Assembly (NCBI GenBank): GCA_963728565.1 | Contig: CAVSLC010000013.1 | Span: 224,001 to 288,000, forward strand | Reading direction: 5' to 3' | DNA from: an uncultured delta proteobacterium | GTDB taxonomy: Bacteria > Desulfobacterota > Binatia > UBA9968 | DNA: 64,000 bases | In this document: positions 35,930 to 61,264 of the stretch, one piece after another | Layout: every line of letters begins with the position of its first letter | Position numbering within the stretch: position 1 is the stretch's first letter | The notes under the pieces: model-generated | What the model was told of the DNA's origin: nothing | What the model saw: the letters and a program-made list of their open reading frames with translations, nothing else | Database searches by the model: none | Made by a program: the position numbers and the translations under genes

Positions 35930-37896
35930 TCACCACAAAGTCGTTGTGTCGATCACATAAACCCTGCCTGAATACTTCTGCACGGTCTCAAACATATGCT
36001 GGGTGCCGCCGGGGCCATCGCCGCCGCTGCGGTTCCAAAGACAAACAAAGCGCACCTTCTCTGGCCCCCATGCCAGCGAAGTGTAAAGCTGCCAAAGGTT
36101 TAGCCGCGCGAACGGGTTTGCTGCCGCGGGTAGCGGTCCTAGCACTTCGGGCATCACCAACGTTGTGGTATTTGGATGAGCTTTAACTTTGAAGTAGCGT
36201 TCCGTCCAGTTGCCCGGAGCGAAGGAGACCGACTTCCGCAAAAACGTCGGCTCGTCCAAGGCTAATCGTAATTCGAGTTTGACTCCGCGCTGAAGGGCAG
36301 CTTCGGCAAACAACAGGTCGCCGCCGCATGCGCCGCCGCAGAGAGCCAGGTCCGCCGCCCCCGCGTCCAACTTTTCCAGGGTAGCCGCTATCGCCGCCGC
36401 GGCGATTTTCTCTTTATCGGCAGGAAATCGCGGCTCGGGCCGGTCCGGAGCATCGATCATATGACCGCTGAATAGCAAAACCTGTCGTGGCGCCCAGGTC
36501 TTATCTGGCGGATTGAGCCGGCTTAACGCGCGATCGAGAACCGCCAGTGCAGCTTCAACTTCCTCCGGACGAAAACCCAAAAGTCCCAGCAGCTCGAGCT
36601 GCTGGCGTGATGAATTGAGTTTGAACCAATCCTTATCAGCTACCGCGACGGCGTTCTTGTATGCCGCATCGACCGCTGGCTTCGTCCCCACCAAAACTTC
36701 CAATTCGGCTAAGCTGATGCGCGCCCAGTAATCTTTGGGATTTCTCTCCAGCGCGCCACGGATCGCCCAGCGCACGCCGCCTTCCATTTCCGTGCGCAGC
36801 ACATCGGCTTTCAGCTCATCGGCCGACAGGTGAGCCAACAAATGCAGCAAGGTCACGGCATTGATTCCTGAGTAGTAGTGCGCCGGATCTTTGCGGAATC
36901 CGGTGGAGTATGCGTTGATCGCTTCGCATAGGGTTGCGCTTTCGCTCTCAGCTTCCCGGCGCATATCGACGACAGAGCTTCCGTCGCTGCTTCCAGCAAT
37001 CCACCCACGCGTCTTTTTCCACGCGCCCGCGCATCGCCCAACTCTCGGCATCTTGAGGGAATTCATCGATCAAATCTTCGATGCACTCTTTGGCATCGTC
37101 ATGCTTTTTTAGCCGGCCGAGTAATAGGCACTTCTGCCGGCGACTCTCTAAATCTCTAGGTCGGATCGCCAGCGCCTCTTCATACTGTGCCAGAGCCAAC
37201 TTGAATTGGCCCACTGAAAGCAGCGCCCGGCCGGCCTTCTGGAGTGCCTCAAGGTGAAAAACGCGAGTAGGCGCCTCGCCGGCTAGAACAAGAATATCGC
37301 CAGGACGATTGCCTCTCCTGGCTATGTCGATCCGGTCCGCCCATCCTTCATATTGTTCCCAAAACTCTTTGGCTTCTTCGACCCGGAGAGACTTCCAATC
37401 AGGCTCGTCCAAATAGCGTAGCAGATGATAGACTGGACTCACCTTGCGTCCATACCAGGCATTGATCGTATGAATAGCGACCTCGGCTAAATTTTTCTTG
37501 TCATCCTCGAGGTACTGCGGATCGGGAATCGCTGCGGCCGGGGTGTTTTTGGCGATTCGGTAACGAACCGAACGTTCAGTAAGAACATCGAAGGGCGTTT
37601 GATCGCGCCGGCAGGTAATCTGAATCACGCCCCGCTTCCTGAGCGCATGGCGCACGCCAAGTTCGTACCAGACGTTGGGATTGTCAATGGACAAGTCGGC
37701 GACCACCAGATCCGCGAGCAGCAGTTCCTGGAACATATCCGTGCGGATATTGCCGGCCCGCATCTCTTCGTCGGCGCGAAATACTTCAAAGCCCGCCGCC
37801 TTCCAAAGCCGGTTTGATCAACTCACGAAATACCGCATTGAAGTCAATATCTTCCTTGATGCCAAAGGGCATCGCGACAAACGCATGGTGCGCCAT
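35930..37896 (-). CDS. Multidomain protein: nucleoside-deoxyribosyltransferase-like N-terminus, TPR/DUF4071 (ASK1/MAP3K TRAF-binding-like) region, SLOG-like C-terminus; two frameshifts (~37800, ~36980)
   Basis: AFVAMPFG, RADEE, ADLSIDNPNVWYELGVRHA; TPR helices and YYSGINAVTL; LFSGHMID..RFP, GGACGGDLLFAE, WNRSGGDGPGGT. Confidence 0.8.
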
Positions 37897-38332
37897 GTCA
37901 TTTCACCTCATCCGTGTCGGCGATCGTAGTCCAATGTCGGCCGACGCAGTGCTATCATCTTCTCCGCGCCAATCGGTCTCCCCGCCACATTAAAGCAGGC
38001 ATGTTCCGCTGGAAATTCTTCAGTTAAGATAGATACTCTCAACTACGCCGCAAGTATAGCTTTTTTGCCTGAGAAACGCCCGTGAATTCCACCAATATGA
38101 GTCACGTTGAGCTAAGCTCCAATCGCAAGAATGGGAATAAGCGGAAGGAGCCATGATTCTGTGGTCCTTCACACTGAATCGATATGCTTGTGGGCAACGG
38201 GAACATAGATCGGGTTTATCACCTGCCTCGAGAGCTATCCCGTCAAGACTGGCCGCCGAGACAGGATTTTTGCGCTTGGCTTTCTAGCAAAAAATTGCTA
38301 ACTAATTTGGATTCTCAACTTGGAGGGTTAAG

Positions 38333-38506
38333 GTGAATAGGAAAGAGCTGGAAATGCGCATTTGGGGCAAGACGATAGCGTCGGCGAAGAAAAAAGGAAT
38401 TATTTCGGAAGAGGAAGCGCAGTTCCTGCTAGATGAATATCTTAAAGAATTTAAGGTTAAAAATGGATGGGATGGAGTAAGTCATTTCATCCCCAGGGTT
38501 TTCTGA
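38333..38506 (+). CDS. Small hypothetical protein (57 aa), below the ORF-track cutoff
   Basis: GGAGG 6 nt before GTG; MNRKELEMRIWGKTIASAKKKGIISEEEAQFLLDEYLKEFKVKNGWDGVSHFIPRVF. Confidence 0.5.
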   Translation: MNRKELEMRIWGKTIASAKKKGIISEEEAQFLLDEYLKEFKVKNGWDGVSHFIPRVF

Positions 38507-38702
38507 GTTCTTTGCCCGCGAAACGGCTAGCTACTATAACGCTTTGGGTTTCTGCCTCTTTTTTCGAATCAAATTAGCTCGTCGTTTTCTGATGGAGCGG
38601 TCGATTCCGGATTAATCTGAGATTCTCTTCGTTTCGGCGATCTCCTTCGGCTGCGCTGTCAGGCCTTCTCGATCGCTGAACCTGTCCGACCACTGGCTTC
38701 TG

Positions 38703-39167
38703 CTATCGATTTTCCCCGGCCCGAGATTGTTGAATCGCCTCGACAATCGCGTCGGCTTCAAGACCCAGTTCCAGGGTCTCGATCAGGTCACTGTAACGAT
38801 CAGGATCTATGATCGCCTTCACTTCCGGCTCGAAGACGTGATACACGCCTAAACCCAATTCGACGCCACCGAGCGGCCCGGCATAGGTCGGATCGCCGCG
38901 GGTCATGGTTTCGAACTGCACGCGCGCCGCATCGACGTTGGGCGCGCCGAGTAGCACGACGAGATCATCCGCACCGTACTCTTCTGCAAGCTGTTTGACT
39001 CGACCTTGAACCTCAAGGTCCACCGCGCCGGCGGCAGTTCAAACAAAGCACTGAGTGGTCGCGTAGACTACCTCGGCACCCAGATTCTCGATAGCCTGTT
39101 CGATGGTATGGGCCGGCACGCCATCGCGTTCGCCGAGAATTGCGATTTTCTTGCCTCGAAGTTCCAT
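38703..39167 (-). CDS. grdA: Glycine/sarcosine/betaine reductase selenoprotein A (154 aa, Sec at UGA 39039-39041)
   Basis: MELRGKKIAILGERDGVP...TQCFV-U-TAAGAVDLEVQGRV...GDPTYAGPL: GrdA consensus with CxxU; frame continues across the TGA. Confidence 0.95.
39002..39020 (-). promoter_or_regulatory. SECIS-like hairpin of grdA
   Basis: GACCUUGA-GGU-UCAAGGUC perfect 8-bp stem starting 18 nt after the UGA, G-rich apical loop. Confidence 0.75.
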
Positions 39168-39209
39168 CAGTTCCCTTTCAATCCGACTTAGCTTGGAAAT
39201 TGATCCTTG

Positions 39210-39414
39210 TTATCCCTGCCGTCCAACATAATCAACATGTCATTTCATTTGTTATCACTGTCGCTCACCTCGCCAACATGCCGATTTCATCTTTATGGCT
39301 GCCGTTCCAATAGCACCGACATGCCGTTTTGGCGGGCTGTCACTGTCGCTCTCATCTCGCCAACATGCCCCATTTCATTTTTTATGGCTGCCGTTCCAAT
39401 AGCACCGACATGCC
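39210..39414. repeat. Degenerate tandem repeat including an exact duplicate of the grdC 3' end
   Basis: 34-bp exact repeat at 39292-39325 and 39381-39414 (period 89); five ~40-45 bp units each starting G(G/A)CATGT on the minus strand. Confidence 0.85.
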
Positions 39415-40827
39415 ATCGCTGAGCTGGGTCATCTGCCCCAAAAATAAACTGGCTCGGGCAAAAAGAAAACAGCGCTTGAATTGTCCCTGGGTTAGTTCTT
39501 GGACGGCATGCGGCACATAAGCCAGCGCCGAGGCGATATGGCCCTGGGTTGGCGCATAGCCGGGCAATCCCTTTTCTTTCATGAATGCCGCAAGATCGTT
39601 TTTTGCCAGCTTGCCCGCCTTGACCAGGACGGCCCCGAGCATCCGGTAATTTCGCTCCGCAACGTCGCCGCCGTTCGCCGGCAAGGTGATCTCCGGATTG
39701 TGCAATTCGGTGACAAATTTATCGATCGCCGGCACGCCCAGCTCTAGCCGGTTCAGCGGGTCGACAACCAGTGATTTCAGCTGCTGATCCAATGACGCGC
39801 CGGCCGATACCGGATGACGGCCGACGCCGGCCAGATTGATAATCGGGCTTTTGCCGTCATCCCGGCCAACCCAGACCGCAACTGCCGCCTGCATGTCTTC
39901 CAACACCGGAATGTTTTTTTCAAGATGGTAGAGAAACTTCATGCCGAGCTTGGGCAGAGACGATCCACCGACAACAATGATATTTTCCGCGACACCGCTT
40001 TGCACGAGCGCGGCGGCGGTGACCATCGCCGGAATCGGCGCGGCGCAAAAATCTTTAACATCGAAACCGGAAGCCATCTCACAACCGGAAAACTCGGCGA
40101 TCGCTTTGGCTAAATTGCCGCCGCCGCGCTGATAACGGTCGCCGACGGCCTCTTCCGAACAGCCCAATACAAAATCGACCTCTTGCTTCTTCAGGCCCGG
40201 GTTTCCGGCAAAGATTTCCTCAAGCGACAAAGCCGCCGAGACCTTGCCGCAGAGATTCTCCAACAACACCGTCGCAGATAGCGACTCATCTTCGTGATGC
40301 CCGTTGGCGATCCAGCCCACCGGTTCGAGCTCACTGCCAATAAACAGCTGCAGGCCGTCACCTTGAGCGATGATCGACTTCAGCTTGTTTGAGTCCATAA
40401 GATTCGGAGCAGTCGTTGCAAGCGATCTGCAAACGGTCGATTGCTGCAGAGGCGCGGCAATCTCATCCCAGAAACGGTCGAGCAAGGCAACATGTTTGAA
40501 CGGATCCGCCAGCGCGAGCAGAGCGAGAAAGAGTTTTTCGTCGACGATGCTGCCGAAGGTTTTTCGCTCCTCGGTGAGTATCGCATGCTCTCCGAACCAC
40601 GGTCGGCTGACTAACCATAGTTTCTCAGGCGCTTGTTGACCGATGAAAACCTCATTGGGCAAGTAGCCCTGCGCTTGCTGAAAGGACCTAAGACTTCGGT
40701 TCAAGTCCGCGAGACGCGCCGGATTGGCGGCAATTTCCCGTTGCGGTTTTGACCCATACCGTGTCAGACCCGGGGTATGGATCAGGACGCTGCAGGCTGC
40801 TTTTATCACAGGTGAAAAATTCGACAT
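39382..40827 (-). CDS. grdC: Glycine reductase complex component C beta subunit (FabH/thiolase-like fold)
   Basis: HTPGLTRYGSKP, LLENLCGK, CSEEAVGDRYQRGGGNLAKAIAE, FCAAP, KLGMK, ELHNPEIT, PGYAPTQGHI. Confidence 0.92.
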   Translation of the reverse strand: MSNFSPVIKAACSVLIHTPGLTRYGSKPQREIAANPARLADLNRSLRSFQQAQGYLPNEVFIGQQAPEKLWLVSRPWFGEHAILTEERKTFGSIVDEKLFLALLALADPFKHVALLDRFWDEIAAPLQQSTVCRSLATTAPNLMDSNKLKSIIAQGDGLQLFIGSELEPVGWIANGHHEDESLSATVLLENLCGKVSAALSLEEIFAGNPGLKKQEVDFVLGCSEEAVGDRYQRGGGNLAKAIAEFSGCEMASGFDVKDFCAAPIPAMVTAAALVQSGVAENIIVVGGSSLPKLGMKFLYHLEKNIPVLEDMQAAVAVWVGRDDGKSPIINLAGVGRHPVSAGASLDQQLKSLVVDPLNRLELGVPAIDKFVTELHNPEITLPANGGDVAERNYRMLGAVLVKAGKLAKNDLAAFMKEKGLPGYAPTQGHIASALAYVPHAVQELTQGQFKRCFLFARASLFLGQMTQLSDGMSVLLERQP

Positions 40828-40954
40828 AGCTGCTCTTCAGGATGTATAAAGTATGAGGCTGCCGATCAAGAGGCGAGCCCGCAGAAGAACGTTAAGAGAC
40901 GAAGATCGCTCTCACGATTGTTCCGGGCTAACAGCCTGGTGAAAAATGGGTCTT

Positions 40955-41084
40955 GCAAGCTGCTCAAAAAGACCTCAGAGGTAAGGCGCGCGAAGTCCGA
41001 TGAGCTGAGGCGTACGTTTCAGTACGTCGAAGCGAGTCGCGCGAGCGCAACGACACCTATGAGTCATTTTCAGCAGCTTGCTAG
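40955..41084. repeat. ~130-bp structured repeat (MITE-like), copy 1
   Basis: Terminal inverted repeats GCAAGCTGCTCAAAAAGACCTCA / TGAGTCATTTTCAGCAGCTTGC; internal CGTAC..GTACG hairpin; ends in CTAG. Confidence 0.85.
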
Positions 41085-42385
41085 TAGGCATTGCAGATCC
41101 AGCATTCCTTACCCCAATTATCGACACCGCCAATCACCATATCGCGCGCGTCAAAGGTGAGTTTTCCTTCGGCCTGCGCCACCGGCGCGCCAGGGTAGCT
41201 GAGAATCTGCACCCGGTCGTACGGGCCGACCAGACGTTGGGCTTCGGGCAGCTCCAACCAGCGGTCGCGGCTCCCAGTGCTTACCACGGCGTCGGCTTCT
41301 GGAACATAGAACAGCAGCGGCGAATCAACTCCGTCCTTGCCGCCGTACTCATAGGTTACCAGCACCGTGGCGATCCCGCGCAGTTCACACGCGCGCACCG
41401 TCAGCATCACGTCCACGAAGGCGTTACCGGAACCTAGCCAGGCCACGATCGCCCCCTGCGCACCAAGAGTCGCCGCCAGTTGCGCGGCGTTTTGGGCGAT
41501 CACTTCCTTGCCATGAAAAGTCTCGTAACGAATGCGTTGCAAAATCATACCGCTGAAATTCAAGCGCCGGCCGTGATCGCGGTAAAGCGCCAGCACCAGA
41601 GGATGATTCTGCCAATCCCAGGTAATCGGAAAATAACCGATGCCGCGGGTGGCATTGACTGCCATGGCACAGTCGAGCAACTCGTTGGGATGAACCACGG
41701 TCGAGAGCGATTCTCGTATCGGCAGACCGTAATAGCTCACACCTGAATGAACATGATGATCGTCGGTCAAACAGCCTTGAACCAAGACCACGTTCGGCAA
41801 ATCCGCATGCCTTTGGCTGAGATCGAAAACCTCTACGTTCTCGGCCTCAATGCCGATGGTCGTCTCGGCAACACGGCGGGCAACTTGGAACTCAGCGGTT
41901 TGAATTGCCGTGTGCGCATCGAGTTCCGAAAGCCCATCGCGCAGCTTCATGATCAACACCAGATGCGAAAGGCCGCCAAATTTTGACGCCGCCGCGCCCG
42001 CTCCCCATGTATCGAGGAGGGCGCTTCGCTGCACGCCCAGTCCGGCTCTAACGGTTCCCTCGTACGCCGCCGTCGCGATCACAGCCATGCCGGATAAGCG
42101 ATGGGTGCGACCGGCGCCGACCGCTTCCACCGGTCCGAGTATCCCGGGAAACACCTGACCGTTGCCGCTAACTTTCACCCGGGGCTCAACGATGTCGCGA
42201 ATACCGGTGATGCGCACCTTGTCGCCAGGACAAACCACAGCCAAGGATGCTTCGGCGATTCGCCCGTCACGCAGGATTATTTCCTCCAGCGCAGGTTGAT
42301 CGATCGCGAGCGTTCCGGCGCGGTATTCAAATGTCCGGCCCAGACGGATCTCTTTGACCGGGTAATCAGCCAGTTCGAGTCGCAT
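41081..42385 (-). CDS. Glycine/sarcosine/betaine reductase component B GrdE/GrdI-like subunit, paralogue 1
   Basis: MRLEL, PGDKVRI..IRDIVEPRVKV, FPG, HPNELLD, QNHP, GSGN, EYGGKDG; collinear with GrdE. Confidence 0.9.
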   Translation of the reverse strand: MRLELADYPVKEIRLGRTFEYRAGTLAIDQPALEEIILRDGRIAEASLAVVCPGDKVRITGIRDIVEPRVKVSGNGQVFPGILGPVEAVGAGRTHRLSGMAVIATAAYEGTVRAGLGVQRSALLDTWGAGAAASKFGGLSHLVLIMKLRDGLSELDAHTAIQTAEFQVARRVAETTIGIEAENVEVFDLSQRHADLPNVVLVQGCLTDDHHVHSGVSYYGLPIRESLSTVVHPNELLDCAMAVNATRGIGYFPITWDWQNHPLVLALYRDHGRRLNFSGMILQRIRYETFHGKEVIAQNAAQLAATLGAQGAIVAWLGSGNAFVDVMLTVRACELRGIATVLVTYEYGGKDGVDSPLLFYVPEADAVVSTGSRDRWLELPEAQRLVGPYDRVQILSYPGAPVAQAEGKLTFDARDMVIGGVDNWGKECWICNAY

Positions 42386-42391
42386 GCTTGC

Positions 42392-43732
42392 TTACCCGCT
42401 CACCGCCATATTCGGGGTAAATAGCGTCGGTCCCGTGACTTCGGATTCCAGCGCTTTCAACGCGGTCTGAACGATCTCGCGCCGCAGCCGCGCATCGAGA
42501 TCTTGCGGCAGGCTCGGATCGCCGCAAGGATGAGGTATGCTGACGCCTTTAACGATCCGGTTGGCCCGTACCTGCTCCGCCACCGGATACATCGCGCTTA
42601 CCAAGGCTACCGGAAGTCCCGCCTTCTCGAGTTCTTTGCTCATCACAGCGCCGCTGCGACTACAAGTCCCTCACGTGGCGACAAAGAGCACGCCCTCGAC
42701 ATTGTCCTTCTTCAGATCGGCGGCAATTTCCTGGCCGACGCGGCGCATCACCGCGGGGGAGCCCTGATTGCCTGGAATAACGTAATACGCCGGATACAGT
42801 TTGCCGGCGCCGATCACCCCTTCCGATTCTAACGACCGAAGCGCATCCAGCGGCACGCCATAGTGCGGATTCTTGTTCATGTAGGCGACATTATAGCCGC
42901 CGTGAACAGCTTCCCATTTTCCCGGTTCAAGCTCTTTGAGCTCGGCAATGTTGTATTTACGCCAGTGGGTGTTGCGGTAGGTTTTGAACCGATCCGGATT
43001 GCCCCAGGGAACGACGCCGCTGGTGGTGATGACGGCAATGTTGCGGGCTTTTAAATTATCGAGAGGCGGAGCCGGCGCGATATCGTCCCAGGCCTCCATC
43101 GGCACTTCAGTAGTGAAGGGCTCATGATTGATCTTTTTCAGCAACATATCGATGGCGCGATCGGCGCCGCTCCGATCAGTTTTTTCCAAACGCCGGATAC
43201 CGCGGCTCAAGTAACCTTCCTGCAACGCCGGCCCGATGGTCTCGCCTCGAGCCAGGCGAGAGACAAATTTCGCCACCGCCTTGAGCGCATCGGTCATGCC
43301 GGCGGCGGTCTCTGTTGTCGGTAAACAGAAAACCCGAGGATCGGCCAGGTCGCGATAAGTGCCGATGGCTGGATTTTCTTCGTGCATTGCGGTGACGCAG
43401 GGAATTTCCAATGTCGTGGCAACGGCGTGACAAATCTCGATGCAGCTCATGCCGTAACGTCCGGAATTAAACGCCGGACCGGCGACTAGCGCTTGCGCTC
43501 CCTGAGAGCGAACCGCTTCGAGGATTGCCTTGAGGGCTTCCTCACTATGATCGTGAAAGTAGTTGTCCCCATAATAGATCGTGCATGCGACCTTGGTGTC
43601 AGCGCCGAGCTGTGACTGCAGCCCGCGCGCCGCGCCGGCGGCCTCTTCGATCATGCCGACAGACATGCCCGCCTTCTCTTCGCCTCCAAACCCGGCAAAG
43701 AACTGATTAACGACATGGACGATTGTGGTCAT
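42392..43732 (-). CDS. grdB: Glycine/betaine reductase-type selenoprotein B (446 aa, Sec at UGA 42671-42673)
   Basis: VHVVNQFFAGFGGEEKA, AGPAFNSGRYG, TTSGVVPWGNPD, HGGY, then VAT-U-GTCSRSGAVMSKELEKAG...IPHPCGDP; ORFs 42671-43732 and 42392-42646 are in the same frame. Confidence 0.95.
42642..42660 (-). promoter_or_regulatory. SECIS-like hairpin of grdB
   Basis: GUCGCAGC-GGC-GCUGUGAU 8-bp stem (two G-U pairs) starting 10 nt after the UGA. Confidence 0.7.
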
Positions 43733-43857
43733 CAGGAAATCCTCCTTTGCAACGACCCGTTAAATAGAAGCACCCTATCATCTTTCGCGTATTCATCGAT
43801 AGCCGCGGCCGCGGCCGAAAGGCTGGCTCCTTCGCTCCAGTTACGGGATTATCTCTT

Positions 43858-43987
43858 GCAAGATGCTCAAAAAGACCTCAAAGGCAAGGCGCGCGAAGTT
43901 CGATGAGCTGAGGCGTACGCTTCAGTACGTTGAAGCGAGTCGTGCGAGCGCAACGACGCGTATGAGTCTTTTTCAGCATCTTGCTAG
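43858..43987. repeat. ~130-bp structured repeat (MITE-like), copy 2
   Basis: GCAAGATGCTCAAAAAGACCTCA / TGAGTCTTTTTCAGCATCTTGC; near-identical to copy 1; ends in CTAG. Confidence 0.85.
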
Positions 43988-45291
43988 TAATCCCTGCATA
44001 CCCATCCCTGCTCGCCCCAAATATCGGCTCCACCGATGATCACATCCCTTCCCTCCAGCGACAGAGCACCGCGGGCTGGACTCGCAGGCACGCCCGGATA
44101 GGATAATACTTTGATCTCGTCGTACGGACCGAGTACTTTGTCCATCGCCGGGAGCTCGACGCCGCGATCCAAGCTGCCGGTCGTGACCACGCCATCGGCT
44201 TCCGGCAAATAGAAAAGCAGCGGGCTATCGCGGCCTTCCTTGCCGCCATGTTCATAGGTCACCAACACCGTTTTGATTCCATTACGCTCGCACGCCTGCA
44301 CCGTCAGCATGACATCGACGAAAGCATTGCCGCCGCCGATCCAGGTCAGCAGCGCTCCGTCGGCGCGAAACATTTTCGCCAGCCGCGCAGCATTCTGCGC
44401 GCCGACTTCTTTCCCGTGCGCAGTCTCGAAACGGATGCGCTGCAAAATCACGCCGGCAAAGTTGAGATCTCTTCCATGGGCTTCGTACAGGCGCAGCACC
44501 AGCGGATGATTCTGCCAGTCCCACGTAGTTGGATAGTATCCGCGGCCTGAACGAGTGGTGTCCACGGTGATCGCGCCGTCAAAGAGCTCATTGGGATGGA
44601 GGAAGGTCGCCATCGATTGGCGCAGCGACAGGCCATAGTAGCCAACTCCCGAGTGAACATGCTGCGGATCGGTAATACAGCCTTGGACCAGCATCACTCT
44701 GGGCAAGCCGGGAGTTTCCGCGCTCAGATCGAAGCGGCGAACCGATTCAGGCGAGAGTCCAACCGTTACTTGCGCCAGCCGTCGGGCGACTTTGTATTCG
44801 GCCAATTGAATCGCGGTATGCGCATCCAATTCTCCCAGGCCAGAGGCGAGGCGAAAGCTCACCACCAGATGCGCGTGCGCGCTGAAGCGCGAGATCTCTG
44901 CTGCGGCTCCCGTCATATCTAAAATGGCGCTGCGCTGCACGGTGGTGCCGGCGCGGATGGTGCCTTCGTACGCTGCCGCCGCAATCACCGTCATTCCTGA
45001 AAGCCGGTGCGTCGTCCCCTCTCCCACATCGGCCACCGGCCCGAGAACGCCAGGAAAGACCTGGCCGTTTCCCGAAACCTTATAGCGCGGCTCGACGATA
45101 TCGCGAATGCCGGTGATGCGGGTTTTCTCCCCGGGCATGGCCGCGGTGAGCGAAACGTTAGTAATGCGCGGATCCTGGAGCACCAGATCCACCAGTTCGG
45201 CTTCGTCCATATCCAATGTGCCGTTCCGGTAGGCGAAACGCCCTCCCAGGCGTAAATGCTTGACCGGAAATTCGGCGACATCGAGTTTCAT
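43984..45291 (-). CDS. GrdE/GrdI-like component B subunit, paralogue 2
   Basis: IRDIVEPRYKV, HPNELFDGAI, WDWQNHP, GGGNAFVDV. Confidence 0.9.
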   Translation of the reverse strand: MKLDVAEFPVKHLRLGGRFAYRNGTLDMDEAELVDLVLQDPRITNVSLTAAMPGEKTRITGIRDIVEPRYKVSGNGQVFPGVLGPVADVGEGTTHRLSGMTVIAAAAYEGTIRAGTTVQRSAILDMTGAAAEISRFSAHAHLVVSFRLASGLGELDAHTAIQLAEYKVARRLAQVTVGLSPESVRRFDLSAETPGLPRVMLVQGCITDPQHVHSGVGYYGLSLRQSMATFLHPNELFDGAITVDTTRSGRGYYPTTWDWQNHPLVLRLYEAHGRDLNFAGVILQRIRFETAHGKEVGAQNAARLAKMFRADGALLTWIGGGNAFVDVMLTVQACERNGIKTVLVTYEHGGKEGRDSPLLFYLPEADGVVTTGSLDRGVELPAMDKVLGPYDEIKVLSYPGVPASPARGALSLEGRDVIIGGADIWGEQGWVCRDY

Positions 45292-45322
45292 AATCTAGCG
45301 TGAATAGTTCACCAACGAAAGA

Positions 45323-45501
45323 CGATCAAGGGGCGAACCCTCCGGAACGAAGGCGATGGGCCTTTGCCTTGAGGCGGCCTGCGAACTGAAGTTCGGGAGC
45401 AAGCGCCTGGGAAATAATTTGACTTCACCGCCAAACACCATAAAATTATTTGAAGCTGTTCAGCTCCGCGCCTTCGCTCCTCCGAATTCTCCCCTTGATC
45501 G
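45323..45501. repeat. Long intergenic foldback
   Basis: CGATCAAGGGG / CCCCTTGATCG, CGAAGGCG / CGCCTTCG, AAATAATTT / AAATTATTT inverted pairs. Confidence 0.6.
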
Positions 45502-45529
45502 ACACCCTTGTCGTGAGCGTACCAGCCCC

Positions 45530-46603
45530 CTATCGCGCACCGACTAGCTTGGCAAATTCTTCGACGTAGGCTTTGAGATTAGGCCCGAGCTTGGGAGTTA
45601 CCACGTAGTCAGGCTGGAGTTGAAATTCCTGGAATTTGCTGCGCACTCCCTTCATCGCAACCCCTTTCCCGAGTTTGCCTGCCAACACTGTTTGCCCCTC
45701 TTCCGATAGTACCCAATCGGCGAAAAGCAATGCCGCATGCGGGTGCGGCGAGTTCCTGGCGAGAAACAGGCCCTCGGGCTTTACGATCTTCGGCGCCAAT
45801 ACTTTGAATCCCAACGGCGCTCCCTTGTCGCGGATGGCCGCGGAGGTTTCGCCATTGATAGCGATGCCGATGGGATACTCGCCTGAACTCACCACCTGAG
45901 TGGTCAAAGCGCCGCCGCGCCTGAAGCTGAGATCCTGCTTGCGCAGCTTCGTCAGATAGTCCACCGATTTCTCCCGTCCCCATGCCTGCTCCATCGCTGC
46001 CAGAATGTAGCCGGCTTCAGGGTCGAACAGCAGTTTGCCTTTCCACGACGGATCGAGAAGCGCGTCATAAGTTTGCGGCACCGACTCGGCCTTGACCAAA
46101 GTTGTGTTGTAAACCAACGCGGTGGTCAAATAATACATGCTATGCCACGAGCCGCTCGGATCGTAGGTGCCATCATAGAATCGCTCCCGAGCGGCCATGG
46201 CGTAAGAATGGACTAAATTGTCATTGATAAGCTGGTAGCCGTAGCTCGAATCGACCTGGATCGCGTCCACGGCATGGCTGCCGGCGCGCGCCTCGGTGAG
46301 CGAGCGGTTAAGGATTCCCTCGCGTGGCGCGTAGTAGTGTTTTAGATTCAAGAATGGATAGCGCGCATTGAAAGCCTTGCCGAGTTCGCTAAATTCATTG
46401 ACCAAAATAGTTCCGTAATAAACCAGCTCGCCTTCCTTTTGAGCTCCCTTGACGAGAAAATTTTGTTTGTCCTGAGGATTTAGCATGCTGACTTTCGCCG
46501 TCACCTCTGACATAGTCGCTGCGCCGCTAGTGTCTGCCATAAGAATGAACAGTAATGATTGGCATAGCGTTAAAACTCCGAGGCCCTTTATCATTTTACG
46601 CAC
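45530..46603 (-). CDS. ABC substrate-binding protein, Fe3+/thiamine-like family
   Basis: GAQKEGELVYY, YNTTLV, LLDPSWKGK, SPHPHAALLFADW. Confidence 0.87.
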   Translation of the reverse strand: MRKMIKGLGVLTLCQSLLFILMADTSGAATMSEVTAKVSMLNPQDKQNFLVKGAQKEGELVYYGTILVNEFSELGKAFNARYPFLNLKHYYAPREGILNRSLTEARAGSHAVDAIQVDSSYGYQLINDNLVHSYAMAARERFYDGTYDPSGSWHSMYYLTTALVYNTTLVKAESVPQTYDALLDPSWKGKLLFDPEAGYILAAMEQAWGREKSVDYLTKLRKQDLSFRRGGALTTQVVSSGEYPIGIAINGETSAAIRDKGAPLGFKVLAPKIVKPEGLFLARNSPHPHAALLFADWVLSEEGQTVLAGKLGKGVAMKGVRSKFQEFQLQPDYVVTPKLGPNLKAYVEEFAKLVGAR

Positions 46604-46745
46604 CGTCGTACCTGCCTTTCACTCGCCTAATATCATCGAACCAGTATCATTCAAATTGATTCTTAGATGCTTCAACCAAATCCGCAGGAATGGATACTGT
46701 TTGCTCCCCGCTTGATGCTTGCGTCGGTTGAACTGCAGTAAGCGA

Positions 46746-48050
46746 TCAGTAAGCATCGCATCGCCAGCTTTGACTTCCCCAATTATCGACGCCGCCGATC
46801 AACATGTCGCGCGCATCCAGGGTTATTTCTCCCATCGCTGGCACAACCGGCGCTCCGGGGTAAGTCAAAATCGAAAATTCCTTATACGGTCCGACCACAC
46901 GCTCGGGCGCGGGAAGTTCGAGCCAACGATCTCTACTGCCACTGCTGACTACCGCATCGGCCTGCGGCAGGTAATAAAGCAACGGTGAATCGACACCGTC
47001 CTTGCCACCGAACTCGTAGGTGATCAGCACGGTTTTGATGCCGCGCTGTTCGCAAGCACCAATGGTCAGCATCAATTCAACGAATGCATTGCCGGAACCA
47101 ATCCACGCAACCAGCGCGCCGGCGGCCCCGAGAGTCGCTGCCAGCTGAGACGCGCTATGCGCCGCCACCTCTTTCCCCAGGAAAGTGTCGAACTGAATGC
47201 GTTCGAGGATCACGCCGAGAAAATTAATCTGCTTGCCGTGCTGGCGGCACAATCCGAGCGCCAGCGGATGATTTTGCCAGTCCCAAGTAATCGGGAAATG
47301 GCCGACCGCTCGAGTGGCGGTCACGGTAATCGCGCCGTCGAGCAGTTCGTTGGGGTGCACAAACGTCGCCAGTGAATCGCGAATCGGCAAGCCGTAGTAG
47401 CTCACGCCGGAGTGAACGTTATGGCTATCCGTGAGACAACCTTGAATCAACACGACCGCGGGCAAGTCCGGCCGCGTAGCGCTTAAATCGAAGGCTTCGG
47501 TGCTTTCGGGGTTGTGGCTGACGGTGAGTTCGGCAAGTCGCCGCGCTACCTTCAGCTCCGCGCCTTGAATCGCCTGATGCGCGTCGAGATCGGACAGCGC
47601 TTCTTTAAGGCGCATCACCAGCACCAGCCCGAGCAGCGAACTAAACCGCGAAGCATCCGCGCCCGGTCCCCACATATCCAGGAGCGCGCTTCGCTGCACC
47701 GCCAGACCGGCGCGGACCGTCCCCTCGTAGGCAGCGCTGGCTATCACCGCCATTCCGGAGAGACGATGGGTTGTGCCCTCACCGACATGGTCTACCGGAC
47801 TTAACGTACCCGGAAACACCTGAGTTTGGCAGCCCACTTTCACCCGTGGCTCGACGATATCGCGGATCCCTGTCACCCGGACTTTCTCGCCCGGATGAAC
47901 CACCGCCAGGGATGCATCTTCGATGCGTCGGTCCTCCAACATTAGATCCGTCAAGGCTCGCTGATCCACTTCCACAATCCCGCGGTCATAATGAAACCTT
48001 TTTCCTAGGTGAATCTGCTTTACCGGAAATTCGGCGAGATCTAGCCGCAT
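46746..48050 (-). CDS. GrdE/GrdI-like component B subunit, paralogue 3
   Basis: MRLDLAEFPVK, IRDIVEPRVKV, HPNELLDGAI, WDWQNHP, GSGNAFVEL. Confidence 0.9.
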   Translation of the reverse strand: MRLDLAEFPVKQIHLGKRFHYDRGIVEVDQRALTDLMLEDRRIEDASLAVVHPGEKVRVTGIRDIVEPRVKVGCQTQVFPGTLSPVDHVGEGTTHRLSGMAVIASAAYEGTVRAGLAVQRSALLDMWGPGADASRFSSLLGLVLVMRLKEALSDLDAHQAIQGAELKVARRLAELTVSHNPESTEAFDLSATRPDLPAVVLIQGCLTDSHNVHSGVSYYGLPIRDSLATFVHPNELLDGAITVTATRAVGHFPITWDWQNHPLALGLCRQHGKQINFLGVILERIQFDTFLGKEVAAHSASQLAATLGAAGALVAWIGSGNAFVELMLTIGACEQRGIKTVLITYEFGGKDGVDSPLLYYLPQADAVVSSGSRDRWLELPAPERVVGPYKEFSILTYPGAPVVPAMGEITLDARDMLIGGVDNWGSQSWRCDAY

Positions 48051-48054
48051 CGGT

Positions 48055-49041
48055 TTACCGCGAACGTTCAAAGGCACCTTCTTTCTCTAGCTTGCGGACG
48101 AGCCGATCGTCGACCAAGTCTTCGGCTTTGAGCTGGCGAATTTTCTCGTTGCTGGTTCCGAGCAGGCGGATGGCATTGCGGATGCCGTCGGCGTTTGGAT
48201 AAATGCGCCGCTCATAAAGCGTCCGCATGAGCTCATAGCCTTCTTCCGCATCCTCGAATCGCGCCAAACGCAGTCCTTTATGGAGACTGGTCATGACGCT
48301 GGTCTTGTTTTCCGGCTTCTCGATGTATGCCGTAGCCTGGGTCATGGCTCGAAGCACCTTTTCAACCGTTTCCGGTGACGATTTGAGAAAGCTCCGCCGC
48401 ACGAAGACGCCGGTGCTTTGATAGGGAATCTTCAAGCTGGCAAGATCGGCGAGCACATTGAATCCCTGACGCTTCATGAGCGCTCCGAAGGTATAGCCCA
48501 AGTAAGTACCCTCGATCAGGTTGGTGGCCAGCGCCTGGGCTAGAACCGCTTCATCGCCGACGATTCTGAAGTTGACTCCATCACGTTTGGGCTCGATGCC
48601 CCAGTGATCCAACACCAGCATGGTAATCATCCAGATGCCGCCGCCGATGCTTTGGACGCCGATGTTCCGGCCTTTCAACTGTGCGGGAGTTTTGATCTGC
48701 GGATGAACGACGAACGTACCGGTAAGCCGATTGACCAATCCGGCAACGAATACACCGTCCAAGCCGCCGGCCACCGCGCCAAGCGTAACGCCCGTGCCGG
48801 AACCGAAATAAAATTGCGACTCACCTGCGGCTAACGCCGAAAGCGCAACGTTCCCCGCGCGGACATACACAAGGCGCGCGTCCAGATCCTGTTTGCGGAA
48901 AAACCCCTGGTCCTGAGCAACGAGAAGAGCGCCCGCGGTCCGTTCATTGAAACTGGCGTATGAAATCACCGTCTGCGTAGCCGCTTGGACGTATGAAGCT
49001 ATAAGTAGCAGCGCAAGGGTGAAACTTATTCGAAGACGCAT
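48055..49041 (-). CDS. ABC substrate-binding protein, NMT1/SsuA-like
   Basis: Signal peptide; VAQDQGFFRK, LKGRNIGV; only 4 nt from grdE paralogue 3. Confidence 0.87.
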   Translation of the reverse strand: MRLRISFTLALLLIASYVQAATQTVISYASFNERTAGALLVAQDQGFFRKQDLDARLVYVRAGNVALSALAAGESQFYFGSGTGVTLGAVAGGLDGVFVAGLVNRLTGTFVVHPQIKTPAQLKGRNIGVQSIGGGIWMITMLVLDHWGIEPKRDGVNFRIVGDEAVLAQALATNLIEGTYLGYTFGALMKRQGFNVLADLASLKIPYQSTGVFVRRSFLKSSPETVEKVLRAMTQATAYIEKPENKTSVMTSLHKGLRLARFEDAEEGYELMRTLYERRIYPNADGIRNAIRLLGTSNEKIRQLKAEDLVDDRLVRKLEKEGAFERSR

Positions 49042-49072
49042 GATCAACCTCCAGGTTTCTTATACTACTAGT

Positions 49073-49252
49073 GTTCAAAGGTTCAAACGTTCAACAGTTC
49101 AACGTCGGACACAGTAGCAGGTTCGAACCGTTCCAACGTTAAAACCCAGATTGGGCCGGTGGCTTTCTTCGCTTGAACATCTGGGACAATTGGCGCGTTT
49201 GTAACCTTCAGCAAATCTGTCATTGAACGTTTGAAACTATGAACTGTTGAAC
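49073..49252. repeat. GTTCAA / TTGAAC inverted micro-array element, copy 1
   Basis: GTTCAAAG GTTCAAAC GTTCAACA GTTCAACG on the left; TTGAAC-type units on the right. Confidence 0.7.
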
Positions 49253-49276
49253 GGGACCGCACTGTATGACCTCGGG

Positions 49277-49391
49277 CGAGCAAGAAGGCTCATATGCGAG
49301 TCGCGCGATGGTCGATGAGCGCAGGCGTACATAGTCAGTACGTCGAAGCGAATCGGGCGAGCGCAACGAAGTAGATGAGCCTTATCGCTCG
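49277..49391. repeat. Diverged copy 3 of the ~130-bp structured repeat
   Basis: Shares CGATGAGC..AGGCGTAC..CAGTACGTCGAAGCGA.TCG..CGAGCGCAACGA core; own terminal stem CGAGC..AAGGCTCAT / ATGAGCCTT..GCTCG. Confidence 0.75.
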
Positions 49392-49396
49392 TCCGA

Positions 49397-50842
49397 TCAC
49401 GCCCAGTAGGTGGTGCGGTCAACGGGAATATGCTGCAGAATCTCTACCGGCACATATTCTTCAAGGCGGATTCTGGCGAGAGCCTCTTCCGGACATTGGG
49501 ACACCGGCGAGAACGGCCTGTCGAGCGGGCGGGTGGCGTCGATGATCATTGCCGAGGTTAACCGGGGGCTGTCCAGCGATGGATCGATGAGACTGGCGCG
49601 CATGATTTCGCCAATGATCGAGACTTGGCGGTGGGGCTGAACCCGTGTCGCCAGCGCCCAGAGAATTTCCGTTGGATTGTAAACATCGATATCCTCGTCG
49701 AAGACGAAGACGTTCTTACACCAATCCCATGTCAAAACCGCGGCGGCCGCACGACCGGGATCTCCTTCGGACATTTTTTTCATTGAGATAAACACATTCA
49801 ACAGCGCATGACGGCCGCTGGTACACACAGCTTGAACGTTGGGCACCGCTTCGCGGCATCGGCGCAGATACGCGCCTTCGCGCGCCAGGTCCATCCACGG
49901 CTTGTCGCCCTCGGGCGTGAGAATCGACATGTGCATCGCGTCCCGCCGGCGCGTAATCGCCCGCACTTCGTAACAAGCCGATTGCTGAAACCCCTGCATG
50001 CCCAGATAGCCGTTCACCTCGCCGAACGGACCTTCGACCATGCGCTTTCCCGGCAGCAACGCGCCTTCAATGACTACTTCGGCATCAGCAGGAACGAGTA
50101 GACGCTCACCCCATGTTTCCGACGCCGTCAAGCGTAGCGGCTCCTGCAAATAGCCGCCGATAATTTCATACTCGCTGATCTCGAACGGACCGCCATAGCA
50201 GGCGCCCATTTGATAGCCGGGATGATGGCCGATCACCGTGGCTACCGGGCATTCTTCGGCGGCTTCTTCGTAGCCGCGGAAAATGCGCCACATATGCTGC
50301 AAGGTCATCAGGAAGCCGGTATGGTTTCGATCCTTGACTTCCATCCTATGATACGAAGCGTTATAGACGCCGCTGTTGCGATCCCGAGCAACGCTCGACA
50401 TATCGATATAAGGCCCGCCATCCATCTCGTGATGGCGCATCAACGGCAACTGGTAAAGATCTACCTCGTCGCCGTTCTGAATGACTTCTTTAACCGGCGC
50501 CGCATCCCGATCGACGAGAATGGGCGCGATTCTTCCTGCTTCGCGGCGCAGGATCTCGCGCGCCATCTCCGCGCGATCCATCTCCTTGGGCACACCCAAG
50601 GCCACCTGCACTTTCTTCTGAGTGTTTTCCGTGCCGATCACGAGTTTGATGCCGCTTGACTGTCCATGCGCGTTGAGTGGCTGTTGGAACAGCAAAACGG
50701 GAAATCTCTTGAGCGCGCCGAGCTGTTTGACGATCGCAGTCACATCGTAAGCAAGCGGATCGACGGCCTTTGAAATCGTCACGATTTCATTGGGATAAAT
50801 CCGGCGCATATCGTCGAGGAAAGTGCGTAAGGATTTTGCCAT
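49397..50842 (-). CDS. UbiD-family (prFMN-dependent) decarboxylase
   Basis: DGGPYI, YNASYHR, VPADAEVVIEG, EGPFGE, FDEDIDV, WALATR, IIDAT. Confidence 0.92.
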   Translation of the reverse strand: MAKSLRTFLDDMRRIYPNEIVTISKAVDPLAYDVTAIVKQLGALKRFPVLLFQQPLNAHGQSSGIKLVIGTENTQKKVQVALGVPKEMDRAEMAREILRREAGRIAPILVDRDAAPVKEVIQNGDEVDLYQLPLMRHHEMDGGPYIDMSSVARDRNSGVYNASYHRMEVKDRNHTGFLMTLQHMWRIFRGYEEAAEECPVATVIGHHPGYQMGACYGGPFEISEYEIIGGYLQEPLRLTASETWGERLLVPADAEVVIEGALLPGKRMVEGPFGEVNGYLGMQGFQQSACYEVRAITRRRDAMHMSILTPEGDKPWMDLAREGAYLRRCREAVPNVQAVCTSGRHALLNVFISMKKMSEGDPGRAAAAVLTWDWCKNVFVFDEDIDVYNPTEILWALATRVQPHRQVSIIGEIMRASLIDPSLDSPRLTSAMIIDATRPLDRPFSPVSQCPEEALARIRLEEYVPVEILQHIPVDRTTYWA

Positions 50843-50860
50843 GGAATTGATTTCCCCTCA

Positions 50861-51130
50861 TGTACGACCGATTCATGAATCGCCCGTACGGACGATGCAA
50901 TTGCGGTCGAATTTTCCGCTCAAATTCCCATTGAGCTGGATTATCGGTAATGCATGGTCCGGTCCGTTTCACGATTCATCATCACGAACAACCTGGTCAT
51001 GCTAAACCCGGATTCCGCAGTCGAACTAAAAATCCCGGAAAACATCCCGCTCGAAGCACCGCTGAGCGATGTCTGCTCAGAGGTAGAAACCCATCGACTT
51101 CGCTGCGGAAGGATTGTGCCTCGCGCTTTC
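50861..51130 (-). mobile_element. Degenerate REP-associated tyrosine transposase (RAYT) remnant with a REP-like palindrome
   Basis: GTACGACCGATTCATGAATCGCCCGTAC palindrome at ~50862-50889; minus-strand fragments HDQVVRDDES and ITDNPAQWE resemble the RAYT C-terminus (HDHIIR...YIxxNPxxW). Confidence 0.6.
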
Positions 51131-51249
51131 TGTCAATCGCAACTGCGCAATCCGGGATAATGGGCGCGCACGCGACCTTGGGGATCTTCCGACTCCGAGG
51201 CGCGCCAACTCGTGCGCAAAACGTCGCAAATCTTTACAACATTCCGGTG

Positions 51250-58458: not shown

Positions 58459-58560
58459 AGGCGAACCCTCCTCCGTTACTGCAATGCTCCCTCAATATCT
58501 AAATGATCGGCAGATGTCTATTTGTTTCTACCAGGGCCATTTGGTAACTTTATCCAAACG

Positions 58561-59679
58561 ATGACTGGACAGGAAAAGCTCAAGAAGATTCGCGATGAGC
58601 TGCGGCAAACCTTTCTCGAGCGCGCCGATTTGATCGACGGCGCCCTCGCCGCGCTGCTCTCCTCGCATCATATACTGATCATCGGACCGCCGGGCACCGC
58701 CAAGTCCATGCTTGCCGATGAATTATGCCGCCGCATCGAAGGTGGCAAGTATTTTCAATGGCTGCTTACCCGTTTTACCACCCCGGAGGAGATCTTCGGC
58801 GCGGTCAGTTTGAAGGCGCTGGAACAGGATGATTACCGGCGAGTGACCAGTGATAAACTCCCCGAAGCCCAGATCGCCTTTCTCGATGAAATTTTTAAAG
58901 CCAACTCATCGATTCTGAATTCGATTCTCACCCTGCTCAACGAGCGGCTGTTTCACAACGGCAAAAGCGTCGCCCGGGTGCCATTGCTGACGCTGTTCGG
59001 CGCCAGCAATGAGCTGCCCGAAGAAGAAGAGCTTACCGCGCTCTACGATCGTTTTCTGCTGCGCTTCGTGGTCGGTTATATCGCCGAAGATTTTCGCTTC
59101 TTGCGCATGTTGGAGTCCCAGAAACACCCCGAACGGACAACTCTCAGCTTGGCCGAGCTGGAGGACCTTCAGAATCAGGTGAAGGCGGTATCGATTCCAT
59201 CCCACGTTTATCGCGGTATTGCCGATATCCGGCGCGAGTTGAACAAGAAAAATATTGTCGCCTCCGACCGCCGTTATCGTCAATCTCTGACATTGCTTCA
59301 GGCGCATGCGTTTTTGGAGGGCGAAAAGGAAGTCGCGGAAAAAGATCTGTTTTTCCTCGAGCATGTTTTATGGCGCGATCCGGCCGAGCACGAGCAGGTA
59401 CGCACCACGATTCGCGACTTGATTCTGGGATACGAGGAAGAGATTTCCGAACTGCTCTACGAGTCGCGCGAGATCCGCGACTCCGCGACTCGCCCATGGG
59501 CCACCAGCGACGAGAAAGCGCGCGCGCTCATCGAATTTCACACCAAGCTACGCAACATCCTCGCTAAGGTCGATCAGATCGTCGACAAGGCCAAGCGCTT
59601 GGGGCGTCCCGTGGAACGAGTCAATACCGTGCGGAGTGAAATCGAGCAGTTACAGAAACAGATGCTGGAGCAGTTCTGA
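58561..59679 (+). CDS. ravA: RavA-like MoxR AAA+ ATPase
   Basis: GPPGTAKS, LLTRFTTPEEIFG, FLDEIFKANSSILN, ASNELP, LYDRF. Confidence 0.85.
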   Translation: MTGQEKLKKIRDELRQTFLERADLIDGALAALLSSHHILIIGPPGTAKSMLADELCRRIEGGKYFQWLLTRFTTPEEIFGAVSLKALEQDDYRRVTSDKLPEAQIAFLDEIFKANSSILNSILTLLNERLFHNGKSVARVPLLTLFGASNELPEEEELTALYDRFLLRFVVGYIAEDFRFLRMLESQKHPERTTLSLAELEDLQNQVKAVSIPSHVYRGIADIRRELNKKNIVASDRRYRQSLTLLQAHAFLEGEKEVAEKDLFFLEHVLWRDPAEHEQVRTTIRDLILGYEEEISELLYESREIRDSATRPWATSDEKARALIEFHTKLRNILAKVDQIVDKAKRLGRPVERVNTVRSEIEQLQKQMLEQF

Positions 59680-61253: not shown

Positions 61254-61264
61254 GGTCTCGTGCC

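Follow-up and report, generated by a model that had tools for sequence, protein, structure and literature searches.

The grd cluster and its selenocysteine codons

We analysed a stretch of 64,000 nucleotides from an uncultured delta proteobacterium (GTDB lineage Desulfobacterota; Binatia; UBA9968; assembly GCA_963728565.1, contig CAVSLC010000013.1, positions 224,001 to 288,000), called the window below, with coordinates counted from its first letter. Once TGA is read as selenocysteine (Sec), positions 38703-49047 of the window carry eight co-oriented minus-strand genes that form a cluster of glycine-reductase type. The original prediction, made from the letters of the window, had given their order as SBP(NMT1)-grdE3-SBP-grdE2-grdB(Sec)-grdE1-grdC-grdA(Sec), SBP standing for substrate-binding protein. 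All eight were found where it had put them, each with profile matches (lengths in amino acids, aa):

38703-39167, minus strand: GrdA (selenoprotein A), 154 aa; PF04723 197 bits, NF040748 198.6 bits against a cut-off of 130.
39382-40827, minus strand: GrdC (protein C beta subunit, thiolase/KAS-III-like), 481 aa; NF040746 510 bits against a cut-off of 450.
41081-42385, minus strand: GrdE1, a GrdE-family subunit without the processing Cys; PF09338 301 bits.
42392-43732, minus strand: GrdB-type selenoprotein, 446 aa; PF07355 384 bits, TIGR01918 438.9 bits against a cut-off of 65.45.
43984-45291, minus strand: GrdE2, a GrdE-family subunit without the processing Cys; PF09338 308 bits.
45530-46603, minus strand: SBP_b, an exported binding protein of SBP_bac_8/6/1/11 type, related to Fe3+ and aminoethylphosphonate binders.
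46746-48077, minus strand: GrdE3, a GrdE-family subunit without the processing Cys; PF09338 305 bits, NF040793 220.8 bits against a cut-off of 780.
48055-49047 (or from an ATG at 49041), minus strand: SBP_a, an exported NMT1/SsuA-type binding protein; PF09084 63.7 bits.

All reading frames of the cluster are intact. The three GrdE-family subunits are 434, 435 and 443 aa long (one value each, in the order reported), the grdB stop and the GrdE1 start are 6 nucleotides (nt) apart, and SBP_a overlaps the start of GrdE3 by 23 nt if GrdE3 begins at the GTG at 48077. The profiles of the glycine/sarcosine/betaine/proline reductase superfamily (PF09338, PF07355, TIGR01918 and PF04723) all scored above their cut-offs. 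The assembly (4.53 Mb in 28 contigs, 80.6% complete, estimated contamination 5.8%) was found in a genome search to carry three GrdE and one GrdB and no others, and the claimed ratio of three GrdE to one GrdB is thus true of the cluster and of the whole incomplete assembly. Since genomes of the same genus have two to three GrdB matches, further Grd loci may be missing from it.

Both GrdA and GrdB contain an in-frame UGA. In GrdA, the TGA at 39039-39041 encodes Sec43 in the CxxU motif C40-F-V-U43, and in GrdB the TGA at 42671-42673 encodes Sec354 in the context A-T-U-G-T-C. The search for Sec machinery that the original prediction had called for found the complete set in the genome: selA, selB and selD lie together on one contig (C28), selD itself with one TGA, and a tRNA-Sec was detected by ARAGORN. 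The GrdB TGA is kept in 48/48 GrdB homologues of related loci. A hairpin 14 nt past the grdB UGA is conserved at the nucleotide level in 49 distinct grdB sequences, and the grdA hairpin, with 8 bp and a GGU loop, is invariant in 11 distinct sequences from relatives. The codons flanking these hairpins vary while the hairpins are kept, and a few sequences, read by eye, have stem changes that preserve pairing. Judging from these conserved codons and hairpins, Sec decoding in the cluster is real. With its strong profile matches, the Sec machinery of the host and the kept TGA, the system proved to be a genuine and conserved Sec-dependent member of the glycine-reductase superfamily.

Divergent GrdB and GrdE subunits

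GrdB was placed by the cut-offs of curated models, and GrdE by such cut-offs and a tree. The one model whose cut-off GrdB exceeds is TIGR01918, which covers the broad subfamily. GrdB stays below the cut-offs of the glycine-reductase equivalog TIGR01917 (400.8 bits against 602.2), of the GrdF model NF040794 (425 against 800) and of the GrdH model NF040795 (397 against 775). The window GrdE proteins score 207-227 bits on the GrdG model NF040793, with its cut-off of 780, on which the references reach 881 (GrdG), 668 (GrdE) and 345 (GrdI-like); on the FarE model NF053623 they score 104-120 bits against 675. The D-proline reductase models TIGR04480 and TIGR04483 (PrdA/PrdB) gave about 23 bits against 700 and 79 against 300. 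A profile search over 1.84 billion cluster representatives returned 294 clusters at E <= 1e-30, a number that rose to 1268 with the limit at E <= 0.001, and none of the NCBIfam models exceeded its cut-off on 112 representatives of the family. A quick maximum-likelihood tree of 125 rows was then built from 116 representatives, the three window proteins, three references and three proteins from other loci of the order; its representatives are 390-470 aa long, with shorter and longer hits and the FarE, PrdA and PrdB references left out. In this tree, the window proteins and one representative form a clade with a support of 99 inside a large uncharacterised radiation, and the three references (GrdE, GrdG and GrdI-like) form a separate clade with a support of 91. 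The claim that the system stands outside the characterised glycine, sarcosine and betaine clades is therefore borne out by the cut-offs and by the GrdE tree. More than 1200 database relatives were found for GrdE2, the closest labelled Ca. Binatia, and a sequence search of PDB returned no relative of GrdE2 or GrdB. On sequence grounds, we place the window cluster in a large undescribed branch of the enzyme family.

For comparison at the level of residues, we used reference clusters from a plasmid collection: that of P. acidaminophilum (grdX-grdG-grdF), that on pCR1A of E. gilvus (trxB-trx-grdA-grdC-grdD-(GrdI-like)-grdH-BCCT) and an unannotated record of A. noterae (grdX-trxB-trx-grdE-grdA-grdB-grdC-grdD). 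The alignment shows T-U-G-T-C-S-R-S-G in the window GrdB and T-U-G-T-C-T-R-C-G in the three reference B selenoproteins, so that the UxxCxxS motif first read in GrdB is indeed there, as U-G-T-C-S-R-S in place of U-G-T-C-T-R-C. The third Cys of the motif is replaced by Ser in 47/48 GrdB relatives. Another Cys, Cys403, lies 49 residues downstream of Sec354 in the motif H-P-C-G-D-P, where the references have Leu, and it is kept in 44/48 of these relatives. To judge by the alignment, Cys403 looks like a relocated partner thiol. No signal-peptide-like N-terminal segment was seen in GrdB or in the GrdE proteins.

The three window GrdE proteins are 62-68% identical among themselves. At the column of the cleavage site, the alignment gives N-A-T246-R247 in GrdE1, D-T-T-R-S-G-R in GrdE2 and T-A-T-R in GrdE3. 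A. noterae GrdE and P. acidaminophilum GrdG have S-G-N-C there, and the GrdI-like protein of E. gilvus has F at the column and F-M at the site. The Asn-Cys cleavage site that marks the proproteins of glycine and sarcosine reductase (GrdE/GrdG) is thus found in none of the three. Most of the 63 GrdE homologues from related loci have T-R or a close variant. Next to the site, each paralogue type has residues of its own that are conserved among its members, the pattern expected of specificity determinants. Across the tree, Cys occupies the column in only 6/125 rows, Tyr in 46/125 and Phe in 15/125, indicating that loss of the Cys is common in the GrdE family, though rare among its studied members. 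The lack of a pyruvoyl-forming Cys, which had been singled out as peculiar to this locus, was found in all three GrdE proteins, yet it is less unusual than implied, as GrdI and FarE are without it too and no more than the 6/125 rows just given have it. Passages of PMC10838667 describe GrdI, the subunit for betaine, and FarE, that for fluoroacetate, as unprocessed and free of the processing Cys, and FarB as having no CxxC.

In each of the three paralogues, as in most relatives, a Thr takes the very place of the processing Cys in the alignment, and this Thr could itself be a self-cleavage residue. It would then yield a 2-oxobutyryl or similar carbonyl able to form a Schiff base with primary or secondary amines, for example with N-substituted glycines. 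Ser, Cys and Thr can each start the N-to-O or N-to-S acyl shifts of self-processing proteins. However, the C-x-x-x-C site has lost its second Cys too, along with the S-G-N in front of the site, several relatives have Ala, Met or Arg in place of the Thr (N-T-A-R, S-T-M-K, D-A-R-R), and Tyr or Phe fills the column in much of the wider family, with the counts given above. Self-cleavage at Thr is, in our view, improbable.

The same residues bear on another reading, in which the system is a plain betaine (or sarcosine, or glycine) reductase, changed only by divergence in a remote lineage. It would turn glycine betaine into trimethylamine and an acetyl unit, the trimethylamine feeding the methylotrophy that has been proposed for Binatia. 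The betaine reductase GrdH/GrdI of Peptoclostridium acidaminophilum type resembles the window system in having a Sec GrdB-type protein and a GrdE-family subunit without the processing Cys, GrdA and GrdC being common to both, and presumably in a Sec attack on the alpha-carbon that needs no Schiff base. The missing Cys is shared both with the GrdI-like protein beside E. gilvus grdH and with GrdI, as far as passages of PMC10838667 describe the latter. OpuAC, a betaine-binder family, is assigned to 64% of the members of one Atlas cluster near SBP_a, which is a lead only, and parts of PMC11264602 present Binatia as putative methylotrophs with methylamine genes. On the other hand, identity to the betaine reductase references is 38-39% for GrdB and 32-34% for GrdE. 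The GrdB score of 397 bits is well short of the GrdH cut-off of 775, the GrdG model gives the window GrdE proteins 207-227 bits and the GrdI-like protein 345, and the clade of the former (support 99) is far from that of the GrdE, GrdG and GrdI-like references. The UxxCxxC shared by all three references is changed to UxxCxxS with a seemingly relocated Cys, and T-R, not F-M, stands at the old Cys site. Unlike the E. gilvus betaine cluster, the cluster studied here has three GrdE per GrdB, exported SBPs instead of a BCCT carrier, and no GrdD, trxB or trx; three paralogues with differing site motifs also argue for more than one substrate. A diverged betaine reductase is accordingly an unlikely explanation, less so than self-cleavage at Thr.

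Fluoroacetate reductase FarB/FarE of Cloacibacillus porcorum shows that the family can take non-nitrogen leaving groups (passages of PMC10838667). From the same passages, it is like the window system in its unprocessed FarE, in the altered Cys motif of FarB and in a substrate-specific B module that feeds a common GrdA/C. The present system differs from it in having no radical SAM or MFS antiporter genes. C. porcorum, the host of the fluoroacetate reductase, reportedly has GrdD.

Missing GrdD and recurrence of the locus in relatives

GrdC has the invariant thiolase-type Cys261 and, in the alignment, is without the C-terminal tail of about 30 residues seen in two reference GrdC proteins. Of the two subunits of canonical protein C, GrdC scores above its equivalog cut-off, and GrdD is missing. 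GrdD belongs to the PlsX family (PF02504), and its best model hit in this genome, at 23.8 bits, is the housekeeping PlsX beside FabD. Throughout the order, GrdD was found in 0/123 genomes (58 of them of high quality), and GrdC scored over its cut-off in 80/123; as a positive control, the search was run on two reference records, where it recovered GrdD with 581 and 552 bits. None of 44 related loci gave a hit for GrdD, TrxB, Trx or GrdX. The claimed lack of grdD and trx in the cluster therefore held, and grdD is not elsewhere in the genome either. TrxB-like and thioredoxin genes lie on other contigs, unlinked to the cluster. The gene after grdA was considered as a substitute for GrdD and rejected, the genes downstream being common to close relatives only.

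Acetate kinase (AckA) and Pta were not found in this 80.6%-complete assembly. In one genus of the order (g27), GrdC is present in 27/28 genomes and AckA in 12/28; in another (g19), GrdC is present in 1/12, weakly, and AckA in 10/12. The presence of AckA thus does not follow that of GrdC across the order, in keeping with a function that is not substrate-level phosphorylation. In several genomes of genus g27, the frame that holds GrdC (L048, 8430-11558) is open for about 1000 aa or more; its N-terminal 560 aa in L048 have no Pfam match, and it may be a fusion or no more than an open upstream frame.

The glycine reductase GrdABCDE of Acetoanaerobium/Clostridium sticklandii type shares with the present system the superfamily, the GrdA (CxxU) and GrdC equivalogs and the Sec positions. 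It differs in its pyruvoyl-forming Cys, GrdD, GrdX and linked thioredoxin, all missing from the present system, whose GrdB lies below the equivalog cut-off and whose host is capable of O2 respiration. A glycine reductase could also serve in a reductive glycine pathway of the kind found in Desulfovibrio desulfuricans G11, in which formate, CO2 and methyl groups are assimilated as C1 units and end up in acetyl units. The lineage is called methylotrophic in parts of PMC11264602, and an assimilatory glycine reductase has a deltaproteobacterial precedent in passages of PMC7547702. By the same passages, however, G11 has both protein C subunits together with thioredoxin and its reductase, and GrdD is missing here. 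Moreover, glycine requires a pyruvoyl carbonyl, which the window GrdE cannot make from Cys, GrdB scores 400.8 against the glycine-reductase equivalog cut-off of 602, and the pairing with exported SBPs and the three specificity subunits point to external substrates. We regard this pathway as very unlikely here.

The synteny survey proposed at the outset was carried out as a pattern scan with one genome per species, and it showed that the architecture recurs in 44 related loci. Most carry labels of Ca. Binatia or Deltaproteobacteria metagenome-assembled genomes (MAGs), a few have the label Thermodesulfobacteriota or Syntrophobacter, and a single one that of Chloroflexota. In three independent MAGs (L002, L003 and L007), the order from UbiD through GrdA is the same, and L002 and L003 have the gene order of the window at 94-98% identity. 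Together, the 44 loci hold 58 GrdE and 43 GrdB, with more GrdE than GrdB in 16 loci. In 27/44 loci, an SBP gene lies on the same strand as a GrdE or GrdB gene and no more than 400 bp from it, and an SBP_b-type gene lies immediately upstream of 12/14 of the GrdE2-type genes that could be assessed, which supports a genetic pairing of specificity subunits with exported binding proteins.

When the genome studied here (G000) was considered along with 40 relatives that are at least 90% complete, both the GrdE and GrdB families were present in 34/41 genomes, with 139 GrdE and 105 GrdB matches summed over the per-genome columns, fragments included. One genome (G092) has 27 GrdE and 20 GrdB matches and dense SBP-GrdE-GrdB arrays (L060-L062), the first of which, L060, packs 3 GrdB, 4 GrdE, 5 SBP and GrdA into 19.5 kb of a single strand. 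In G013, a closed genome, three GrdB types (UxxCxxS, UxxCxxC and UxxSxxS) and an orphan GrdE are found at separate sites (L063-L067), and the three types share one GrdC-GrdA pair. The established rule of one GrdE per GrdB, against which the locus had been set, is consequently not firm in this lineage, GrdE exceeding GrdB in many genomes. A second Grd arrangement, GrdC-GrdA-GrdE-GrdB, was observed in the order (L049, 8166-14576; L050, 7492-13780); it adjoins a divergent gene for a protein of roughly 500 aa whose thioredoxin fold is DsbH-like and which may serve as its reductant. In the open full-text literature, subscription journals lying outside the search, no paper was found that connects Grd genes, or a reductase for glycine, betaine or sarcosine, with Binatia or Binatota; PMC9999580 reports grdH as undetected in its sponge-associated genomes. 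Chief among the new features are the lack of GrdD across the order, the rebuilt motifs of GrdB and GrdE, the SBP-GrdE pairing and the size of the radiation in Binatia.

Small insertions lie in several spacers of the cluster. An element of about 135 nt, like a miniature inverted-repeat transposable element (MITE), is present in two copies:

40951-41085, strand not assigned: MITE-like 135-nt element, copy 1, GrdE1-GrdC spacer.
43854-43988, strand not assigned: MITE-like 135-nt element, copy 2, GrdE2-GrdB spacer.

The element has 22-nt terminal inverted repeats, a third, partial copy at 49335-49383 and 51 near-full-length copies genome-wide, and it is skipped in the contigs of close relatives; it is no functional part of the Grd system. 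The GrdE2-SBP_b spacer contains 33-nt inverted-repeat arms (45323-45355 and 45469-45501), and contigs of relatives from RNA libraries have 46 nt in place of its 238 nt, so it probably holds another small insertion. An exact 34-nt direct repeat (39292-39325 and 39381-39414) lies with further short repeats in or just before the grdC-grdA spacer, its second copy overlapping the end of grdC. An Rfam scan of 37500-51500, up to E = 1, found no riboswitch or other known RNA, and promoter and terminator scans gave results at chance level.

Three mobile-element-like insertions in intergenic spacers, and a MAG with 5.8% estimated contamination, would be in keeping with a decaying or silent relic or with an artefact of assembly or binning. 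Against this, every frame is intact, the same order is found in the independent MAGs L002 and L003 at 94-98% identity, the Sec codons and hairpins are conserved and RNA-library contigs span the genes. We consider a relic or an artefact extremely unlikely.

Other genes of the window were also considered. A UbiD decarboxylase gene lies upstream of the cluster (49397-50842); it was rejected as a part of the system, being a neighbour in close relatives only and one of 23 UbiD-type tblastn matches genome-wide. The original prediction had taken an O2-dependent cysteine dioxygenase as context for the cluster. This CDO_I protein (61265-61819) is in the window but has no link to the cluster, from which it is set apart by 12 kb, by its opposite strand and by its separate gene group; a link was rejected on distance, strand and context. 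It belongs to a plus-strand row at 58522-63090 (MoxR ATPase, VWA protein, type I cysteine dioxygenase, hemerythrin and response regulator) that is unrelated to the grd genes. On the other side, a protein of TPR-sensor type at 35930-37763 is split into two overlapping open reading frames, where L002, L003 and L004 have one of 653-654 aa; from this comparison, a frameshift or an assembly error is likely.

Predicted chemistry, host and meaning

The host is an aerobe-capable soil bacterium, with genes for the haem-copper oxidase COX1. Soil metagenome runs from at least 10 coded studies contain the sequence, with a share of 0.33-0.47 of the sampled words. Contigs of 4 soil RNA libraries span every gene of the cluster at 90-99% likeness, deepest over grdA, and by this likeness they come from close relatives. 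None of the outcomes that the original prediction had named as counting against it was seen: the proteins do not nest in known clades, no grdD lies elsewhere, Sec machinery is present and the RNA contigs give a weak sign of expression.

The binding proteins begin with hydrophobic, signal-peptide-like N-termini when read by eye, that of SBP_a being MRLRISFTLALLLIASYVQA. Their PDB matches were rejected as a clue to the ligands, these being distant taurine, THI5 and Fe3+ binders and too weak. Likewise rejected were the genes by the closest SBP_a paralogues, which encode unrelated amidohydrolases, UbiD, a thiamine pyrophosphate (TPP) enzyme and dehydrogenases. We also observed that binding-protein genes in this genome often lie beside catabolic enzymes (amidohydrolases, UbiD, TPP enzymes).

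Taken together, we think it probable, though well short of certain, that the cluster encodes a functional Sec-dependent enzyme that belongs to the glycine-reductase superfamily. It is predicted to act reductively on several X-CH2-COO- compounds, splitting X from the alpha-carbon without a Schiff base. As GrdE has no carbonyl-forming Cys, the substrates likely need no Schiff base. In glycine reductase, as outlined in the review literature and in passages of PMC10838667, the Sec of GrdB attacks, the group is transferred to GrdA, an acetyl thioester forms at protein C and thioredoxin re-reduces the system. In the window system, the two exported binding proteins would catch substrates in the periplasm, with uptake through ABC (ATP-binding cassette) membrane parts encoded elsewhere. 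In the cytoplasm, the single GrdB would partner GrdE1, GrdE2 and GrdE3 in turn, each bringing its own substrate specificity. GrdB Sec354 would attack the alpha-carbon, drive out X and become carboxymethylated. The carboxymethyl group would then move to GrdA Sec43 and be released reductively as an acetyl thioester on GrdC Cys261, leaving GrdA with a Se-S bridge that an unlinked thioredoxin system would re-reduce. As GrdD is absent, the acetyl group probably passes from GrdC to CoA. Most likely, and here we infer purely, this would proceed like the first half-reaction of FabH in reverse and give acetyl-CoA rather than acetyl phosphate. The resulting role would be the acquisition of carbon or nutrients, not ATP formation of Stickland type.

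The original prediction of an atypical, modular Sec-dependent reductase acting on non-classical substrates thus proves broadly correct, though its substrate class (onium compounds or N-substituted glycines) is a guess. As to the substrates, our own first guess, a tentative one, is fully substituted onium betaines. Compounds whose leaving group is not a nitrogen one (sulfonate, phosphonate or halide, for example) are a somewhat weaker guess, and N-substituted glycines, by way of a carbonyl formed from the conserved Thr, a rather doubtful one; other classes take up what is left.

Several points weigh against this multi-substrate reductase. The sharing of one GrdB by three GrdE is deduced from gene counts, and additional GrdB genes occur in genomes of the same genus. 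Self-cleavage could still take place at the Thr that is conserved where the Cys formerly stood. No result here points to a particular substrate, and the SBPs match sulfonate, taurine and phosphonate binders weakly (SBP_a 42 bits against 163.5 on SsuA/TauA, and 55 against 393). In this genome, tblastn finds 140 matches of NMT1 type and 36 of SBP_bac type, and in such hugely expanded families the broad family type says little about the ligand, and adjacency in the cluster counts for less than it otherwise would. The idea of high-affinity scavenging, which rested on these proteins, thus has a poor ligand clue behind it. There is no permease or ATPase within the cluster; with 59 ABC permease-domain matches against the 140 and 36 of binding proteins, orphan binding proteins are the rule in this genome. 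Acetate kinase is found in 75/123 genomes of the order, same-genus relatives included. As its absence here may be an assembly gap, the missing AckA and Pta are weakened as an argument against acetyl phosphate, which may be formed via another enzyme. Finally, the RNA contigs are a weak sign that the cluster is expressed, being assembled, strandless contigs of relatives in which DNA carry-over is possible.

On a wider scale, Binatia and their kin may hold a large radiation of Sec-dependent C-X lyases in O2-respiring soil bacteria. These would be free of GrdD and lead directly to acetyl-CoA, each specificity subunit having its own periplasmic SBP, and they would scavenge many carboxymethyl compounds (betaines, sulfoacetate, phosphonoacetate, aminopolycarboxylates) beyond the known enzymes of glycine-reductase type. 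We put this forward as a speculative possibility, more doubtful than not.

In the sections of reviews and papers that we drew on, enzymes of glycine-reductase type are treated as rare, confined to strict anaerobes and tied to ATP via acetyl phosphate. Here, the same selenium chemistry is found in a common, aerobe-capable soil lineage, with no phosphate-transferring subunit, with rebuilt motifs and with many parallel specificity modules. If the system is active, it would lengthen the list of bonds that Sec-dependent reductases can cleave and make the shares of GrdC and GrdD in the final reaction step directly testable. It would also give Binatia, a lineage without a cultured member, a defined and testable trait.

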